NCBI GenBank assembly: GCA_965207735.1
Contig: OZ242296.1
Span: 3,424,001-3,488,000, forward strand
DNA from: Candidatus Versatilivorator sp.
Lineage (GTDB): Bacteria; Acidobacteriota; Terriglobia; Versatilivoradales; Versatilivoraceae
Length of the DNA: 64,000 nt
Direction of reading: 5' to 3'
The notes beneath the pieces are model-generated. The model was not told the origin of the DNA, did no database searches, and saw only the letters and a program-made list of their open reading frames with translations. How positions within the stretch are numbered: position 1 is the first letter of the stretch; every line of letters begins with the position of its first letter. Below are positions 36,336 through 43,841 of the stretch, one piece after another. Both the position numbers and the translations under genes were made by a program.

Positions 36336-36603
36336 ATGGCTACAAAGCGACTGCCTGGATGGCCGGCCATGTTTGCAACGACAGCCTTGCTGCTGCTCGG
36401 TGGGGGACCGCTTCGTTCACAACAGCGCGATCCCGCGAATGCGCAGGGACTCGGTATCGGCAACCCCCTTGCTCTTTCGGGTGGGTCTGCTGGTAAGCCT
36501 GACTCCACGCCTGGTCTTGCGAGGCGGGTACTCGCACATTCTCGGTTACCTGGATACGCCCGCCTCCCGCTCTTTCGAAACGGGAATCGGATTTCGTTTC
36601 TAG
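36336..36603 (+). pseudogene. Frameshifted small outer-membrane beta-strand protein
   Basis: Signal peptide in one frame; beta-strands ending GIGFRF in the next frame; the two join by removing one C from the C5 run at 36464-36468. Confidence 0.5.
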
Positions 36604-36613
36604 CCTGAAAACG

Positions 36614-37393
36614 ATGAAGGCGACACTCACCGGATTGCGTGGCTTGATGCTGGACCTGGACGGCACTGTCTACGAGGACAACCGCCTGATCCCCGGAGCC
36701 GCCGAAGCCATCGCCGCCCTCAGGGAGCGCGGGTTCCGGCTTCGCTTTGTGACCAACACCACCAACAAGCGACGAGAAACCATCCGGGACAAGCTCCATG
36801 TCCTGGGCATCGAATCCGATGCCTCGGAGATATTCACGGCTCCGGTGGCAGCCAGCCTGATGCTGCGGCGTCATCCGGAGGCCCGCTGCTGGGTGGTCAC
36901 CCGGGGCGACTCCATCCAGGAGTTCCAGGGCCTGAGACTGGACGAGGACCAGCCCGATTTCGTAGTTCTGGGCGATCTGATGGAAGGGTTTACCTTTGAG
37001 CTGCTCAACCGCGTCTTTCGCAAGCTGATGGACGGCGCGGAGCTGATTGCCATGCAGAAGAACCGCTACTGGCTGACCCGGGGGGAACTCACTCTGGATA
37101 TGGGGCCGTTCGTTGCCGCCCTGGAGCACGCCACCGGACGCATGGCCCGGGTGGTGGGCAAGCCCTCGCGGGAATTCTTCCACCTGGCGCTTTCGCACCT
37201 CGGACTGGCCCTGTATCAAGCGGTCATGGTGGGGGACGACTGGGAATCCGACATCGCCGGCGCCCAGCGCGCGGGCCTGCGAACGATCCTGGTCCAAACC
37301 GGCAAGTATCAACCCGCAGACGAGAAAAATCTCGATCCGCAACCGGACGGCGTCATCGAAGGCCTCGGCCGCCTGCCGGAGATCCTGGCTTGA
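36614..37393 (+). CDS. HAD-IIA hydrolase (LHPP/TIGR01458-like)
   Basis: DLDGT, FVTNTT, VVGKP, MVGDDWESDIAGA, TGKY. Confidence 0.92.
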   Translation: MKATLTGLRGLMLDLDGTVYEDNRLIPGAAEAIAALRERGFRLRFVTNTTNKRRETIRDKLHVLGIESDASEIFTAPVAASLMLRRHPEARCWVVTRGDSIQEFQGLRLDEDQPDFVVLGDLMEGFTFELLNRVFRKLMDGAELIAMQKNRYWLTRGELTLDMGPFVAALEHATGRMARVVGKPSREFFHLALSHLGLALYQAVMVGDDWESDIAGAQRAGLRTILVQTGKYQPADEKNLDPQPDGVIEGLGRLPEILA

Positions 37394-37649
37394 CATAGAC
37401 GACTTTAAGGCCGTTCCCCATGGGTCCGCTGGTCATGTCGCCAAGCCCAACCGGCGCAAGCTCATTATTCCTCCCACCACCAACACTGCCAATTCGCCGA
37501 ACGACGGCGACGCCTTCGGCAACTGGAAGGGTAAATGTGCACGATTGAGAGCATTTCCGGGACCACGCTTCGTGACCAACCGGGCAAAAGGAAACAAATC
37601 ATCCTGGACTGAAGGTGCCGATCATTCAGTGTGCTAATGGCGTGAAATA

Positions 37650-37700
37650 TTCGCTGTTAGCGAAATAAGTCTTGACTTCCAGCTCCGAAATGTTTATTTT
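37650..37700 (+). promoter_or_regulatory. Retron promoter with upstream palindromic operator
   Basis: TTCGCT-GTT-AGCGAA (37650-37664); TTGACT (37672)-17 nt-TATTTT (37695). Confidence 0.65.
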
Positions 37701-37729
37701 CAAGATGTTTGGAAAATACGGAAGTAAAA

Positions 37730-37970
37730 GTCATCACACCCTGGGTTGGCTTCGGTCAACCCGAGGAGGGGAAACCCTCTACCGCTTACTGCAGCAATCA
37801 CCCTCTCTCCTCAGTGGTGGTCGCTGAGCGAAGCGAGACCCAACCAATGACCCGTTGGGTCTCTGACACATTTGGATTTAGCTGCCACGTTCCGTCTTTC
37901 TGTTGGTGATGACCTCATTCCGCAATTCGGCGGGTGAGCAACAGAAAGGAGGTGAGAAAATGCTCTCACT
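37730..37970 (+). ncRNA. Retron ncRNA (msr-msd) with extended translational-control leader
   Basis: Flanking IR GTCATCAC (37730-37737)/GTGATGAC (37906-37913); UUCG hairpin 37743-37762; GAAA hairpin 37765-37780; branched msd-like stem with hairpins at 37810-37828 and 37835-37863; lies upstream of the retron RT. Confidence 0.8.
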
Positions 37971-38127
37971 GGGAACCAAACCGTGGCGGCGGCGACCGAA
38001 GAGCGGGGGTAAGCAGTGTAGATGGCTACGTAATCCGCGCCTGCTTCGGACAGCTATCCTTATAGGCATCTGGGCCTATCGTCTATGGAGGATTTGCCGG
38101 GCGCTTAATGGTATTTTCGGAGGCTAG
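37960..38127 (+). CDS. 55-aa cationic amphipathic peptide, putative retron effector/toxin
   Basis: Strong SD AAGGAGGT at 37946-37953; ATG 37960; 13 R/K and no D/E; hydrophobic C-terminal half. Confidence 0.7.
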   Translation: MLSLGTKPWRRRPKSGGKQCRWLRNPRLLRTAILIGIWAYRLWRICRALNGIFGG

Positions 38128-38168
38128 GTCGCTTTCCACTGTGTCAAATTACAACCGGATTGGTAAGG

Positions 38169-38504
38169 ATGGCTGTTGACGTACTATCAGAAGCACTTCG
38201 GCTGATTCGAGTGTTTCACGATGTAAAACAAAAACAATTGGCGGAACAATTGGGTATCTCGAAGTCGTATCTTTCAGAGATCGAACGAGGTAAGAAAATA
38301 CCCTCCATTGAGGTCATTCAGAAATACGCCGCTGAGTTTCAAATGCCAGTTTCGTCCATTCTTTTTTTCGCCGAGCAGTTGGTCGACCCAAACCGGAAAC
38401 CTCCAGATGCCGACCGTGTAAGAGGAATCATTGCCGGAAGGGTCATCAGTTTCCTGCAGTTCATCGAAGCAAAAGCGAAAGAACATGCCGAAGAAGCGCA
38501 CTAA
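38169..38504 (+). CDS. XRE/Cro-C1 HTH protein (retron-associated)
   Basis: EALRLIRVFHDVKQKQLAEQLGISKSYLSEIERGKK; overlaps the RT start by 20 nt. Confidence 0.9.
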   Translation: MAVDVLSEALRLIRVFHDVKQKQLAEQLGISKSYLSEIERGKKIPSIEVIQKYAAEFQMPVSSILFFAEQLVDPNRKPPDADRVRGIIAGRVISFLQFIEAKAKEHAEEAH

Positions 38505-39375
38505 ATGCTACGCGGAGCAGGATAGCCCCTTCTATAAGCTCCGCTCGAAGGCGAAACTTGCAAATCTTCTCTTTCTCAACGTCGATAAATTAGAGTTTCT
38601 TGCGGAATCCGAGGACCTATACTTCGATTTCCCCAAGAAGAAAATGAGTGGCGGTTTCCGCCCGATCAGTGCGCCGCGTGCCGATCTCAAGATTGTACAG
38701 AAGAGAATTGCAGACTTGCTTCAACGCATCACTCCGCCGGATTATCTGTTTGCGCCGGTTTGCGGGCGTTCTTATGTGGACAATGCCAAGCGGCACTTGG
38801 GAGCCAGCTCAGTTCGACACCTAGATATCGAGGATTTCTTCCCGAGTTGCACCGCAAATAAAGTCATATGGTTTTTTCGAAAGCGAATGGAATGCTCCCC
38901 GGACGTTGCAGTACTCCTTCGTGGCGTTGTCACAAGGCGTGGTTCGTTGCCACAGGGCAGCCCATGCAGTCCGATACTAGCGTATCTCTGCTATGTGGAT
39001 ATGTGGGAAGAAATTGAACGCCTAGTAGGCGAGAGTAGTTGCCAACTGAGTGTCTACGCCGACGACCTGACAATTTCAGGAGAAATGGTCCCGGAGAGTC
39101 TTATTTGGGAAATAAAACAAATACTGTTCCGACACGGTTTCCGACACAAACGCAGCAAGGAACGGAGCAAGATATACAAACCTACAAAGATAACCGGTGT
39201 AATCCTCAATGGAAACCAGCTTCTCGTGCCGAACCGGCAGCACCAGAGACTCTATCAAGTTCGTCAGAAGTTGAAGGTTTCCCGCTCGCCTGAGCACCGC
39301 AGGCAGCTTAAGGCACAACTGGTCGGGCGAGAATCACAGTTCCGCCAGATTGTCGGAACTCCGCAAAGTCAGTAG
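38485..39375 (+). CDS. Retron-type reverse transcriptase
   Basis: Region X NAKRH, LDIEDFFPS, LPQGSPCSP, YADD, region Y ITG; 296 aa with no maturase or RNase H domain. Confidence 0.93.
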   Translation: MPKKRTKCYAEQDSPFYKLRSKAKLANLLFLNVDKLEFLAESEDLYFDFPKKKMSGGFRPISAPRADLKIVQKRIADLLQRITPPDYLFAPVCGRSYVDNAKRHLGASSVRHLDIEDFFPSCTANKVIWFFRKRMECSPDVAVLLRGVVTRRGSLPQGSPCSPILAYLCYVDMWEEIERLVGESSCQLSVYADDLTISGEMVPESLIWEIKQILFRHGFRHKRSKERSKIYKPTKITGVILNGNQLLVPNRQHQRLYQVRQKLKVSRSPEHRRQLKAQLVGRESQFRQIVGTPQSQ

Positions 39376-39649
39376 ACCCACCACGGGACTCTTGCTCAAC
39401 TGGCAAGAGAAGAGTCCATAAATAGCAAGTACTCTCCAACCGTGGACTAATCGACAAGAAACGAGGATATTGGTGTCGCGACATGTTTGCGGCATTGGCC
39501 GCTCGAGGGACAATGCGTCCCACCGCCGGTCCGCGTTCCGTCCGGTTGAGCTCCCAGAAATCAGCTTCGCCAGGATATGCTATCCTTTCCACCAAAAACT
39601 TCCTGGCTAATGAAGTGCTGGCATCATCTCCGATGAGAGACTGTGCAAG

Positions 39650-40831
39650 ATGAATCCTGAAACGAGTCCGTTCAGCCCCGGACAACCCGTGCCGATTGAG
39701 TTTTTTATTGGGCGCATCCGTGAGGTCGAGCGTCTGCGGGGCATGGTAAGGGCTAGTACACAAGGCAAATTCCGAATCGGATTTGTCAGCGGAGAACGGG
39801 GCATCGGCAAGAGTTCCCTGGCGTCGTTCGTGCGCTACCTTTCAGAGCACGAGAGCCAAGTCGCAGGATGGCATGTCTTTCTCGGCGGCGTTGAGGATTT
39901 GAATGAGATGCTTCGAAGGACCTTCGATCGCCTGCTGAAGGAAAGCATGGACAAACCCTGGCATGAGCAAATCAGGAACTTTTTTGGAAACCACGTGCGT
40001 CAAGTGGGTCTGTTCGGGGTCACTTTGGAGTTGAATCTCCAGGAAAGCGACTGGTCAACGCTCGCCCATGATTTCGTGCCGACCGTCAGGCGGCTTCTGA
40101 ACGAAATCAAGGACCAGAAGCGTGCGCTATTTCTCATCCTGGATGACATCAACGGTCTCGCGGGTTCCGAAGTTTTCGCCAACTGGCTGAAAAGCACCGT
40201 GGACGAGATCTCCACGTCCCAACAGAAAATGCCTCTCTGCATTCTAGTTGTCGGCCTTGAGGAGAGGCGCCAGGAGCTGGTGTCGAAGCAACCGTCTCTT
40301 GCGCGCGTCTTCGAGTTGATCGACATCGCCCCCTGGTCTGACGATGAAGCCATGGACTTCTACCGGAAGTCATTCGACGCCGTGGGCGCTAAGGTTGCCG
40401 ACAGCGACATGCGCCAACTCGTCCGATTCACCGGCGGACTTCCTGTTCTGGCCCACGAGATCGGCGACGCCGTCTGGCGCACGGCCGAGGGTCCGGAAAT
40501 CGAGTCAAAAGAAGTATGGGAAGGAATCTTGACCGCAGCCGAGGTGATCGGCCGGAAACTGCTGCAACCCCAAGTGTTCAGGGCAATTCGCAGTGAGCGT
40601 TACCGATCCATTCTTCGAAAAATGTCGGGCGCGCCCCGGATGAGCTTTGGAAGATCAGAACTCATGGGACGTCTGTCGGACAACGAAAGAAAGGTCATGG
40701 ACAACTTCCTGCGACGCATGAAACGGCTCGGAGCGCTGGAAACCGATCCCGAGGTCAAAGGTGGATACCAATTCCCCAACCTCCTCCACATGCTTTATTT
40801 CTGGATTGAATCCCAGCGGATTTCCCGATGA
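39650..40831 (+). CDS. AAA/STAND-like ATPase with C-terminal winged helix
   Basis: SPFSPG..V...FIGR, Walker A GERGIGKSS, Walker B FLILDD, TGGLP. Confidence 0.85.
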   Translation: MNPETSPFSPGQPVPIEFFIGRIREVERLRGMVRASTQGKFRIGFVSGERGIGKSSLASFVRYLSEHESQVAGWHVFLGGVEDLNEMLRRTFDRLLKESMDKPWHEQIRNFFGNHVRQVGLFGVTLELNLQESDWSTLAHDFVPTVRRLLNEIKDQKRALFLILDDINGLAGSEVFANWLKSTVDEISTSQQKMPLCILVVGLEERRQELVSKQPSLARVFELIDIAPWSDDEAMDFYRKSFDAVGAKVADSDMRQLVRFTGGLPVLAHEIGDAVWRTAEGPEIESKEVWEGILTAAEVIGRKLLQPQVFRAIRSERYRSILRKMSGAPRMSFGRSELMGRLSDNERKVMDNFLRRMKRLGALETDPEVKGGYQFPNLLHMLYFWIESQRISR

Positions 40832-41144
40832 ATGTACTCGTTGCCTGCGATCAGGGAAGTGCTGCTTTACCCCTTTGACAAACTCGGCTTGGTTAGCTCC
40901 ATTAGCGTCTGCTCCTTGTCGAATACCAGGGCGCGCACATTGCCGACAGCTCGGATACTGCTGAGAAGCGGACCGTTGGCGAGCTCTGGGAACGGAAAAG
41001 CGACGGTAAGGGCCTCTTTCTTGTCGCAGAAAATACGCTGGGCGGAAGGGATGTGCGCCAGCAGCTTATCGACAAGGTCAATCTCGCCTGAACTCCCGAG
41101 CCTCTTTCCCTCCCGGCGTAGCGTATCGGACTCTGGAAGACTTC

Positions 41145-43841
41145 ATGCGTGAGACTCTGCTTAGCTACCTGCCCGAGTTTCTGGACCGCGGCGAGGACAC
41201 GGCGCTTATGGGCCGGTCCGGGCTGCGGACCGACTACTGGTCCTATGGCAGGCTGGCCCGGACTTCCTTCCAGGTGGCCCGGGAACTGGGCTCACGGGGA
41301 CTCGGCCTGGGGGACCGACTGCTGTTGCGGGAAGACAACTCCCCCGAATGGGTGGCCACCTTCCTGGGGTGCCTGATGCGTGGGGTGGTCGTGGTTCCCC
41401 TGGATGTTCAGAGCTCTCCCGAGTTCGTGGCCGGCATCGAGCACCAGACCCAACCCAAGCTGGTTCTTGGAGGTGGCCCCGGCGCCTCACTTGATGACCT
41501 CCAGTCGCCGGTGGATTCTGTCGCGGCTCTTTGCCGACGCGCGACCGCACAGGTGCCGACTCCCGACTGGAGTCATGCCGGCAAGGTCACTGCCGACCAC
41601 CTGGCCGAGATCGTGTTTACCTCGGGGACCACGGCGGCGCCCAAGGGGATTCGACTCACCCATAGAAACTTGCTGGCCAATCTGACTCCACTCGAGACCG
41701 AGATCCGGAAATATGTCAAGTGGGCGGCTCCGGTCCATCCCATCCGCTTCCTGAGCCTGCTGCCACTCAGCCATGTCTTCGGCCAGATGATGGGCATTTT
41801 CGTGCCGCCTCTGCTTGGTGGCCAGGCTCTCTTTCTCAATACCCTCAATCCCTCTGAGATCATCTCGGCCATTCGCCGGGAGCGGATCTCGATGCTGGCC
41901 ACCGTTCCCCGCATCCTGGAGCTGCTGCGGGACAAGATCGAGCGGGACGAGGCCGCCCAAGATAGCCGGCCCCCGCTGGTCGAGCTTTTCGAGCGCAGCC
42001 ACGGTCATCACTGGCTGCGTCATTGGTGGACCTTTCGCCACGTCCGCCGCCGATTCGGCTGGAAGTTCTGGGCTTTCCTTTCGGGAGGCGCAACCCTCGA
42101 TTCCGGCACCGAGGAGTTCTGGAAGAGGTTGGGCTATGCCGTCATGCAGGGGTACGGAATGACCGAAACGGCGGCCGTCATCAGCCTTGCCCACCCCCTT
42201 CGACCCGGCCGCGGCTCGATCGGCAAACCCATGCCCGGCCAGGAAATCAAGCTGGACGAAGGGGGAGAGATCCTGGTGAGAGGCCGCAACATCTCGCCCG
42301 GCTACTGGGGGGCGGAGGATGCGCCCCTGACCGACGAGGAGGGTTGGCTGCGAACCGGGGACCTGGGCCAACGGGACGCCAGGGGAAACCTCTATTTCCG
42401 CGGCAGGCGCAAGGAGGTCATCGTCACCTCAGCGGGCTTGAACGTCTACCCCGCCGATATCGAAACGGTTCTCAACCGGCAACCCGAGATCGGCGCCAGC
42501 GCGGTGGTGGGAGTGAACGGAGCGCAGGGCCCCGAACCGGTGGCCGTGCTCATCCTGAGAAGCCCGGAGGCGGACCCTTCCACCGCGGTCCAACGCGCCA
42601 ACCAGCACCTCAGCCCCTACCAGCAGATCCGGCACTGGGTGGTCTGGCCCGAGCGCGATTTTCCGCGGACGGCCACTCAGAAGGTACGCAAGCGGGACCT
42701 GGTCCGGTTCGCGAGCCGGCAGGGAGCGGAACCGGGCGGTCAGGCTGGAGAGGAGCAGGGAAGCCTGCTGGGCGAAATCCTGACACTGGTCGAGGGCATC
42801 ACCGGGACCTCGCCGCGGCGGCGGGACCGCGAAGCCAATCTGACCTCCGATCTCAAGCTGGATTCCCTGGCCAGGGTCGCGCTGATCACCCAATTGGAAG
42901 ATCGCTTCCGGATGGACCTGGACGAATCCAAAGTCACCGAAGCTCTTACTCTGGGTGACCTGGAAAGGCTGCTCCGCCGCCCGGACGGTCTACCGGAGGC
43001 CGGCCGGGGCGAGGCGGCTCCTCCAAGTCCTGAAACCGGTGGCGACCCGCGGGCTCCATCGGGACCACGCCCGGACCCGGGCTCCTCGCGGTCGCACCCG
43101 GAAACTTCCGTCAGGCCCTGGCGCCCTTATCCCTACCCCTACTGGTCCTTGAGGCGGCCCGCCACCTGGATGCGCTTCCTGTTCCAGCACTGTCTCATCT
43201 GGCCGCTCACCCATTTGCTCTGCTGGACCCGGGTGCGTGGACGAAGACACTGGCGCGGACTTCGGGAGCCCGTGCTGGTGATCGCCAACCACGTGACCTT
43301 TTTCGATCCGGCGCTCGTCCTGGCCCGAATGCCCTGGCGCTACCGGAACCGCCTGGCTGTTGCCATGATCGGAGAAAGGCTGAGGGACTTTCGATACCCG
43401 CCGCCTGGGCGCGGGCTTGCCCGCTTCAGCGACTACCTGGCCTACGGCGCGACTGCCGGCGGGTTCAATGCCTTTCCGCTGCCCAGGCAAACCGGGTTCC
43501 GGCGCAGCTTCGACTACGCCGGGGAGGCCATGGATCGCGGCTACAGCGTCCTGGTTTTTCCGGAGGGATCACGCACCAGGGATGGCGAAATGCAGCCCTT
43601 CCAGGCTGGAATCGGGCTGCTGGCGGCCGGTCTGGGTGCCCCGGTCGTCCCCGCCAGGATCGAAGGATTGTTTGAGCTCAAGAAAAGGAGATTCGGAGGA
43701 ATCCGCTGGCCCTTCACCCGGCCCGGTCAGGTTTCCGTCACCTTCGGTCCACCGCTGCGGCCCTCGCCCTCGGACTCTCCCCAGGACCTGACCCGGGAGT
43801 TGGAGAAACGGGTCAGAGGATTGAGTCGCCGAAAGGCCTGA
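41145..43841 (+). CDS. Acyl-CoA/AMP-binding + ACP + 1-acylglycerol-3-P acyltransferase fusion
   Basis: FTSGTT, GYGMTE, LRTGD; LDSL phosphopantetheine site; ANHVTFFD and VFPEGSRT PlsC motifs. Confidence 0.9.
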   Translation: MRETLLSYLPEFLDRGEDTALMGRSGLRTDYWSYGRLARTSFQVARELGSRGLGLGDRLLLREDNSPEWVATFLGCLMRGVVVVPLDVQSSPEFVAGIEHQTQPKLVLGGGPGASLDDLQSPVDSVAALCRRATAQVPTPDWSHAGKVTADHLAEIVFTSGTTAAPKGIRLTHRNLLANLTPLETEIRKYVKWAAPVHPIRFLSLLPLSHVFGQMMGIFVPPLLGGQALFLNTLNPSEIISAIRRERISMLATVPRILELLRDKIERDEAAQDSRPPLVELFERSHGHHWLRHWWTFRHVRRRFGWKFWAFLSGGATLDSGTEEFWKRLGYAVMQGYGMTETAAVISLAHPLRPGRGSIGKPMPGQEIKLDEGGEILVRGRNISPGYWGAEDAPLTDEEGWLRTGDLGQRDARGNLYFRGRRKEVIVTSAGLNVYPADIETVLNRQPEIGASAVVGVNGAQGPEPVAVLILRSPEADPSTAVQRANQHLSPYQQIRHWVVWPERDFPRTATQKVRKRDLVRFASRQGAEPGGQAGEEQGSLLGEILTLVEGITGTSPRRRDREANLTSDLKLDSLARVALITQLEDRFRMDLDESKVTEALTLGDLERLLRRPDGLPEAGRGEAAPPSPETGGDPRAPSGPRPDPGSSRSHPETSVRPWRPYPYPYWSLRRPATWMRFLFQHCLIWPLTHLLCWTRVRGRRHWRGLREPVLVIANHVTFFDPALVLARMPWRYRNRLAVAMIGERLRDFRYPPPGRGLARFSDYLAYGATAGGFNAFPLPRQTGFRRSFDYAGEAMDRGYSVLVFPEGSRTRDGEMQPFQAGIGLLAAGLGAPVVPARIEGLFELKKRRFGGIRWPFTRPGQVSVTFGPPLRPSPSDSPQDLTRELEKRVRGLSRRKA

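Follow-up and report, generated by a model that had tools for sequence, protein, structure and literature searches.

From its sequence, the locus described here is a Type VI retron: within a window of 64,000 nt (the whole stretch of Candidatus Versatilivorator sp. DNA that was analysed), a noncoding RNA (ncRNA), a small protein (SP) of 55 amino acids (aa), a helix-turn-helix (HTH) protein and a reverse transcriptase (RT) are encoded in that order. We propose, with slightly more confidence than doubt, that an 11-bp helix upstream of the SP start codon would be the stem that sequesters the ribosome-binding site (RBS) of a hybrid RNA (hyRNA) riboregulator, and that, together with a hairpin around the AUG, it would silence SP until multicopy single-stranded DNA (msDNA) accumulates. 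A preliminary description of this DNA, made from its letters, had cast reverse transcription as the ON switch for toxin translation. That idea matches experiments on Retron-Vpa2 reported in the main text of a preprint (Zhang et al., bioRxiv October 2025; 10.1101/2025.10.22.683967), and because it has been published for Vpa2 it is not new. The locus does not reveal a new kind of system; its sequence marks it as a further member of the Vpa2-like riboregulators, from a different clade.

The proposed stem and its surroundings consist of the following elements, in which the Shine-Dalgarno sequence is abbreviated SD, minimum free energy MFE and open reading frame ORF.

37895-37905, plus strand: anti-SD strand UCUUUCUGUUG, supported by the sequence, both MFE folds and covariation
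37914-37938, plus strand: inner hairpin of the riboregulator, predicted loop AAUUCG, 91.6% paired, 9/9 pairs changed on both sides
37939-37952, plus strand: 3' strand of the helix, CAACAGAAAGG at 37939-37949, overlapping the SD AAGGAGG at 37946-37952; supported by sequence, covariation and accessibility
37951-37970, plus strand: start-codon hairpin of the folds, GTGAGA (37952-37957) with TCTCAC (37964-37969), AUG 37960-37962 in its 6-nt loop
37960-38127, plus strand: SP ORF of 55 aa (net charge +13), basic in the N-terminal half and with a C-terminal helix that is hydrophobic

The segment CTTTCTGTTG (37896-37905) is the exact reverse complement of CAACAGAAAG (37939-37948), as the preliminary description had observed, and a U37895/G37949 wobble pair extends the helix to 11 bp (37895-37905 with 37939-37949). 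The same description had drawn the pairing further over the SD by G-U and C-G pairs. The G-U pair stands, whereas the C-G extension (C37892/C37893 with G37951/G37952) is doubtful: it is seen only when the hairpin is folded alone, CC37892-37893 lie in a conserved UUCCG that has a better partner in CGGAA (37719-37723), and G37951/G37952 pair in the AUG hairpin in the long folds. The SD helix and the AUG hairpin are both present in the MFE folds of a 470-nt and a 251-nt transcript, whose z-scores are -4.2 and -4.4 (0/100 and 1/200 shuffles, respectively, fold equally well), so that the start codon does sit in the loop of GTGAGA/TCTCAC, and a local hairpin surrounds it in 54 of 56 homologs. A conserved GCAAU motif (37921-37925) straddles the stem-loop boundary of the inner hairpin.

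In these folds the helix masks the AAGG of the SD and the AUG hairpin masks its last GG, leaving A37950 unpaired. The mean probability of being unpaired, P(unpaired), over the SD (37946-37952) is 0.21, and that of the AUG in its loop is 1.0; blocking or removing the anti-SD in silico raises the SD value from 0.21 to 0.65-0.71. The RBS of SP and its start codon thus each lie within a predicted stem-loop, as in a hyRNA, and there is good support for silencing of the SP message by the SD helix together with the start-codon hairpin. Perfect inverted repeats of this kind are scarce in the window, with only five distinct ones of at least 10 bp and a 3-60-nt loop, two of them in the ncRNA.

At E <= 1e-20 we found 898 RT homologs, and 80 loci were kept from each of two homolog collection scans. 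A covariance model of the element, R1, built from 26 sequences, matches in 62 of 78 family sources versus 0 of 15 loci with other retron RTs. The negative sources inspected are loci with fused RTs of 570-660 aa, which belong to other retron types (L045, L046, L048, L050, L054, L057, L059, L061, L064, L066, L069, L072, L077); the remaining L045-L080 and L121-L160 loci, whose RTs are <=37% identical, fall outside that inspected set. The 16 of 78 family sources in which R1 has no match at E <= 0.01 comprise contig-end cuts (L022, L090, L096, L097), a locus without an HTH match (L093), and loci in whose single-sequence folds an equivalent helix can be found by eye (L021/L095, L026/L112, L028, L032, L099, L100, L106, L110, L111).

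Across 56 distinct sequences (alignment A3) the SD helix reaches 94.2% pairing, and 10 of its 11 pairs show changes on both sides; its score was reached by 0/500 shuffles, and slid controls are only 39-51% paired. When strands were exchanged among homologs, the anti-SD bound its own SD strand at an average of -15.1 kcal/mol versus -8.9 kcal/mol for foreign ones, the own partner ranking in the top 10% in 41 of 53 cases, and three negative-control element pairs showed no difference. For the SD core the median P(unpaired) is 0.13, with values below 0.3 in 52/56 homologs, and the position of the helix relative to the SD and to the a2 repeat described below is conserved. The SD helix, the AUG hairpin, the inner hairpin and an arm-closing helix are all conserved with compensatory changes. 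The roughly 56 distinct relatives form a deep comparative set from a different clade, which pins the SD helix by covariation.

Three further elements tie this stem to the retron proper.

37730-37737, plus strand: a1, GUCAUCAC, able to pair with a2/DR2 over 8 bp and with DR1 over 5 bp
37835-37863, plus strand: conserved 10-bp hairpin with direct repeat 1 (DR1), AAUGAC at 37846-37851, in its loop (37845-37853); 99.2% paired, 7/10 pairs covarying
37906-37913, plus strand: a2, identical with direct repeat 2 (DR2), GUGAUGAC, an 8-nt bulge that separates the anti-SD strand from the inner hairpin

The assignment of GTCATCAC (37730-37737) and GTGATGAC (37906-37913) as a1 and a2, already proposed in the preliminary description, is strengthened by their covariation. 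On A4, a MAFFT-only alignment of 53 sequences taken from 58 distinct full-length ones (L018, L041, L082 and L117 were left out because of a 5' gap or truncation, L115 because it duplicates L037 in truncated form), a1-a2 is 88.2% paired with 4/8 pairs changed on both sides, and partner swap gives -8.5 kcal/mol for own versus -5.7 kcal/mol for foreign strands. The a2 repeat abuts the 3' side of the anti-SD strand with zero spacer, just as had been stated. Because the elements follow one another in the order a1, anti-SD, a2, SD, the a1/a2 and SD helices cross; in keeping with the earlier suggestion, the two could stack as an H-type pseudoknot or act as alternative folds.

The a1 element also matches the other repeat. 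Its 6-nt core is fully paired with DR2 in 45/53 sequences and with DR1 in 35/53, across 15 variants of the a1 core, and the a1-DR1 core is 92.5% paired on A4. The 5-nt core of DR1 equals that of DR2 in 31/53, and the cores change together across clades, as in GUCACU / AGUGA / AGUGAC, GUUCUC / GAGAA / GAGAAU and GUCCUC / AAGGA / GAGGAC (a1 / DR1 / DR2). With short direct repeats placed one in the loop of the msd region and one in the riboregulator (here a bulge), the layout is that of a hyRNA, and DR1 and DR2 evidently correspond to the direct repeats published for Vpa2. By the same comparison, the riboregulator "loop" repeat is the retron's a2, and both repeats are complementary to a third element, a1. 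The main text of the Vpa2 and Sen3 preprints, as far as consulted, does not mention such complementarity of a1 to both repeats. This three-way relation is one useful new structural detail: with the SD helix pinned by covariation, a2 as the riboregulator repeat and a1 complementary to both repeats, the question of mechanism is reduced to a few compensatory-mutation experiments. A 7-bp match of a1 with GAUGGCU (38168-38174, across the HTH start codon), present in the 470-nt MFE fold, is unconserved and was discarded; among the 12 of 53 loci examined for it, only the window (7 bp) and L011 (6 bp) have a comparable one.

Retron-Vpa2, a Type VI retron of Vibrio parahaemolyticus, offers the closest experimental guide. 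As the main text of its preprint describes (10.1101/2025.10.22.683967), a ~470-nt hybrid RNA joins msr-msd to the coding sequence of the toxic SP, the RBS and start codon lie in two stem-loops, and SP is translated only upon msDNA accumulation. The msDNA is 86 nt long, a 63-nt stem-loop plus a 23-nt 5' stem-loop with one of two conserved 7-nt direct repeats; it appears as a single 80-90 nt band, its sequenced end is the repeat-bearing hairpin, and it loses the 5' 23 nt unless RecBCD is inhibited. Supplied in trans, with native RT present, the 86-nt msDNA suffices for SP translation, for which the 5' stem-loop with the repeat is essential. Zhang et al. propose pairing between the riboregulator-loop repeat and the copy of the msd repeat that the msDNA carries, and according to the same text the RNA elements through which msDNA acts are still to be defined. 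Literature searches turned up no later paper on the mechanism. The usual retron logic is inverted in Type VI retrons: in Vpa2 the reverse-transcribed DNA turns the toxin on rather than holding it off.

Our search of 285 Vibrio genomes gave seven full-length HTH_VI matches, three of which (L163, L164, L166) have the SP-HTH-RT arrangement, RT_VI scores between 1e-100 and 1e-106, and SPs of 47-55 aa. As read from single-sequence folds, each has an anti-SD UUCCU.. paired with ..AAGGAA, then a 7-nt bulge GGGCGAA or GGACGAA, whose sequence is repeated in the msd hairpin loop; an a1 of CGCC or CGUC matches the repeat. The locus studied here shares with Vpa2, and with the three Vibrio loci, the ncRNA-SP-HTH-RT operon, a direct repeat in both the msd hairpin loop and the riboregulator loop, and inverted repeats that would tie the 3' end past the SP ORF back to the ncRNA. 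It differs in its repeat (AUGAC here, GGGCGA in Vibrio) and in that only the 5' half of the SD lies within the helix, whereas in Vibrio the whole SD does. The window RT shares 35-38% identity with the Vpa2-like Vibrio RTs versus ~30% with other Vibrio Type VI RTs. R1 gave no credible match in the Vibrio loci or in L183, L180 and L181. Two further Vibrio loci with HTH_VI, L168 (G257) and L169 (G067), carry a 72-aa small ORF and a 379-aa RT and represent a different Type VI sub-lineage.

These comparisons suggest how the switch may work. The 37835-37863 hairpin is, by analogy with Vpa2, likely to be the 3' end of msd, and the variable hairpin at 37784-37834 is likely to be the msd template core. 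As in Retron-Vpa2, RT would copy msd from ~37863 back to ~37784; a hypothetical 80-nt msDNA of this extent folds as a 5' 10-bp hairpin plus a long hairpin, and its 5' hairpin loop, GGGTCATTG, would reproduce the a1 core as DNA. Opening of the SD would then most likely be triggered at the a2/DR2 bulge, where either the msDNA loop would dock or a1 would do so after msDNA hybridises to DR1. Copying of the anti-SD strand would be a less likely trigger.

A more elaborate version of this scheme, which we put forward tentatively and regard as improbable, treats a1 as a cis "key" for two alternative locks, DR1 and a2/DR2, with the msDNA 5' loop as a DNA mimic of the key. Reverse transcription would cover or remove DR1 and send a1 or its mimic to a2, and the resulting a1/a2 helix would stack on or compete with the SD helix and set RT priming against the anti-SD. 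If this were true, cDNA initiation and unmasking of the toxin RBS would be one physical event with positive feedback.

Several observations weigh against our proposal that the helix is a stem opened by msDNA. On the unfitted alignment A4 it is only 69.9% paired, because of register slips, and A3 was fitted to the covariance model, which is why the alignment-free partner-swap test was added. Blocking the anti-SD lifts SD accessibility only to a median of 0.40 across the 56 homologs, and the helix here covers the SD only in part. In nested-structure thermodynamics, blocking a2, a1 or msd (37784-37863) leaves P(unpaired) of the SD at 0.21, so that how docking leads to opening lacks an explanation; a loop-bulge contact of 6-7 bp is not enough on its own to melt 11 bp of helix, and a1 in cis (8 bp with a2) should outcompete the DNA loop (6 bp). 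In addition, Retron-Sen3, of another Type VI lineage with a sequestered RBS, makes SP constitutively according to the text of its preprint (10.64898/2026.04.27.721009), and the experiments that support opening by msDNA come from Vpa2, whereas this locus and its clade are known from sequence alone.

It is also possible that the anti-SD itself is the target of copying, as the preliminary description held. On this route the a1/a2 helix would prime, RT would start at G37905 and copy the anti-SD first, cDNA synthesis and RNase H would free the SD in cis, and unbound msDNA would anneal to the anti-SD in further transcripts. In canonical retrons (e.g. Retron-Eco1/Ec86) the template begins directly 5' of a2, and a1 at the 5' side and a2 at the 3' side flank the msr stem-loops and the msd stem-loop; the locus here resembles them in this arrangement and in the covariation of a1/a2. 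Such a start, in line with the general scheme outlined in PMC7736814, would fit an a2 that abuts the anti-SD without a spacer, and the gain in SD accessibility on blocking or removing the anti-SD makes this route physically workable. The Vpa2 and Sen3 preprints leave some room for it, as far as their main texts go: the debranched Sen3 single-stranded DNA (ssDNA) and the loss of 23 nt from the Vpa2 5' end suggest that observed 5' ends may be trimmed ones, and native RT was present in the Vpa2 trans experiment.

We nevertheless consider this route unlikely. The base of the homologous hairpin, 37863, lies 31 nt 5' of the anti-SD, so that the anti-SD does not appear to be the msd 3' end that is copied first, and a comparable gap of ~30 nt separates anti-SD and repeat hairpin in the three Vibrio Type VI loci. 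Initiation at a2 would lengthen the Vpa2 msDNA, which is 86 nt and a single 80-90 nt band, by ~40 nt, and this 86-nt species ends at the repeat hairpin, without an anti-SD complement, yet sufficed in trans in the account of the preprint (10.1101/2025.10.22.683967); the claim that the cDNA covers the anti-SD finds no support there. No conserved G follows a1 directly, the first nearly invariant G on A4 being 6 nt on, at the base of the first msr-like stem-loop. The locus thereby departs from the canonical scheme, in that it has no G directly after a1 and the msDNA 5' end of the related Vpa2 is not next to a2; it departs further in that its a2 lies inside a translational riboregulator and that a second a2 copy is found in the msd hairpin loop.

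A second alternative takes Retron-Sen3 as its model. In this regime the RNA would be a scaffold for an RT-HTH-RNA complex and merely damp SP, low constitutive SP would be held post-translationally by the HTH protein, and the helix would be no switch. By the main text of Garcia-Rodriguez et al. (10.64898/2026.04.27.721009), Sen3 has a sequestered RBS and an IR1-IR2 pairing of inverted repeats (IRs) that flanks the SP ORF, yet ssDNA and SP are constitutive, and the HTH protein neutralises SP post-translationally, independent of RT and ncRNA. Its ssDNA is RecJ-sensitive, i.e. debranched, so that Type VI ssDNA can be trimmed in vivo. The same authors assign Vpa2 to a taxonomically broad "Large" lineage. 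The present locus is like Sen3/cl2075 in its SP-HTH-RT module, its stem-sequestered SP RBS, its predicted long-range IR1-IR2 pairing and the alternative conformers of its extended transcript, and here too the SD is only partly occluded, with the AUG in a loop at P(unpaired) 1.0. In Sen3, by contrast, the RBS pairs in a basal stem formed from the ncRNA termini and the SPs of the lineage are larger; direct repeats are not mentioned in the text of that preprint.

The Sen3 regime is a serious rival, but we doubt that it applies to this locus. Its ncRNA has the direct-repeat riboregulator layout of the Vpa2-like Vibrio loci, its RT is closer to theirs, and its SP of 55 aa matches theirs (47-55 aa) and is shorter than the 75-79 aa of clusters cl2075, cl2760 and cl3272 (PMC7736814, in the part consulted). 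That the SD helix covaries strongly points to selection on the pairing itself. A chance match, or an ordinary mRNA hairpin without regulatory function, is very improbable: although 62/5000 dinucleotide shuffles of 37710-37975 (266 nt) hold an inverted repeat of at least 10 bp, the compensatory changes at 10/11 pairs in 56 homologs, the partner swap and the kept position relative to the SD and a2 all speak against it.

The proposed riboregulator also invites comparison with type I toxin mRNAs. In hok, tisB and aapA1, the SD is paired with an upstream anti-SD, and the mRNA is inert until it is remodelled or processed. The likeness lies in a small toxic peptide whose SD is masked by an upstream anti-SD. 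The difference is that those mRNAs are activated by RNase processing and repressed by antisense RNA, whereas here the proposed activator is reverse-transcribed DNA from the same transcript.

Beyond the stem and the repeats, the transcript contains further elements, several of them long-range.

37719-37723, plus strand: element A (CGGAA), partner of A' UUCCG, which would close the msr-msd domain; both motifs are conserved
37742-37780, plus strand: two msr-like stem-loops of the folds, SL1 (37742-37763) and SL2 (37765-37780)
37784-37834, plus strand: variable long hairpin of the folds, differing in sequence and length among the homologs in A4
37864-37876, plus strand: IR1 (UGACACA..UGGA), pairing with IR2 just past the SP stop codon in the MFE fold
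37881-37889, plus strand: 5' strand of the 9-bp arm-closing helix with SP codons 8-11 (37983-37991), from folds and partner swap
37890-37894, plus strand: A' (UUCCG), abutting the anti-SD strand on its 5' side; A4 shows no variation at C37892 or C37893
38135-38146, plus strand: IR2, partner of IR1, conserved

On A4, SL1 is 84.2% paired with 8/9 pairs covarying and SL2 is 99.1% paired with 4/6 covarying. Compensatory cases for A/A' are AUGGA/UCCAU (L013), GUGGA/UCCAC (L035), GGGAA/UUCCC (L017) and GGGAU/AUCCC (Vibrio); partner swap is non-discriminating for this pair because both strands are nearly invariant. The arm-closing helix shows compensatory changes such as GCUGCCACG/CGUGGCGGC, GUCGUCGUU/AACGACGAC and GGCGGCGAUG/CAUCGUCGC, and its partner swap gives -15.6 kcal/mol for own versus -12.2 kcal/mol for foreign strands, with the own partner in the top 10% in 21/52. 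This helix takes in the Arg-rich CGN codons 8-11 and covaries across homologs, so RNA pairing constrains some of the SP coding sequence. A conserved TCGCTTTCCAC.TGTGTC motif lies past the SP stop in the 12 homologs examined; discrimination by partner swap is weak for IR1/IR2 (own -13.2 versus foreign -11.1 kcal/mol). Some of the covarying pairings cross one another, like the alternative conformers of Sen3.

The protein-coding part of the operon supports the assignment to Type VI, for which we follow the classification of Mestre et al. 2020.

38169-38504, plus strand: Cro/C1-type HTH gene (HTH_VI); HTH_3 8.1e-14, PADLOC HTH_VI 8.8e-32
38485-39375, plus strand: retron RT (RT_VI), 296 aa; RVT_1 2e-17, PADLOC RT_VI 1.3e-93

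The RT_VI match spans profile positions 1-272 of 279, the PADLOC runner-up being RT_III-A at 5.9e-45, and the 3' end of the HTH gene overlaps the RT start (38504 versus 38485). The locus has an RT of the RT_VI clade, a Cro/C1 HTH gene upstream of it, an SP ORF upstream of the HTH gene, and a structured ncRNA with a1/a2 inverted repeats and msr/msd stem-loops. These RT_VI and HTH_VI matches support the earlier placement of a small toxin-like ORF in a retron. The SP matched no Pfam or PADLOC family; it is predicted from its sequence to be the toxic effector. Among the loci kept from the homolog scans, 72 sources, the window among them, have an SP-like ORF upstream of the HTH gene and 5 others have none; SP-HTH-RT synteny is kept in 72 sources, again counting the window. 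An Rfam scan of 36500-41500 at E <= 10 matched no retron RNA family, and its only match, luteovirus BTE at 18.3 bits against a gathering score of 45, was set aside as chance.

Directly downstream of the retron, at 39650-40831, lies a gene for a 393-aa AAA_16/STAND-like ATPase with no PADLOC match. As a retron partner it was rejected: we do not count it in the retron because it is common only to the closest same-genus relative, L178 (84% identity).

RT_VI matches occur in 5/31 related genomes, this one included, and in 4/13 others of the same genus; R1 finds the same riboregulator in two same-genus relatives. The genome also carries a second, different RT_VI-type RT (G000:C1:4583047-4583916, L183; E 9.5e-67), at which R1 has no match.

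Four sponge metatranscriptome runs from one study gave contigs, 90-97% alike, that map to 37728-38285, and a single 574-nt contig from an RNA library reaches from the ncRNA across the SP ORF into the beginning of the HTH gene, although contigs cannot prove one transcript. We take them as a weak hint of an abundant hybrid RNA. The flanks 37500-37727 and 38286-39500 are uncovered, a lack of cover that proves nothing. Several contig ends fall at 37833/37834 and 37862/37863, where the 37835-37863 hairpin has its two bases; they may reflect branching between strains and not the ends of RNAs.

Two candidate control elements lie upstream of the ncRNA.

37650-37664, plus strand: perfect palindrome TTCGCT-gtt-AGCGAA, immediately upstream of the -35 box
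37672-37700, plus strand: promoter-like site, TTGACT, 17 nt, TATTTT; 9/12 consensus matches, with the -35 CTTGA aligned across homologs

From the promoter-like site, the hybrid RNA is predicted to start near 37707. A (T)TCGCT..AGCGAA-like palindrome is aligned at the same place in most (uncounted) of 58 homologous upstream regions, and it is a likely operator for the retron's own Cro/C1-type HTH protein.

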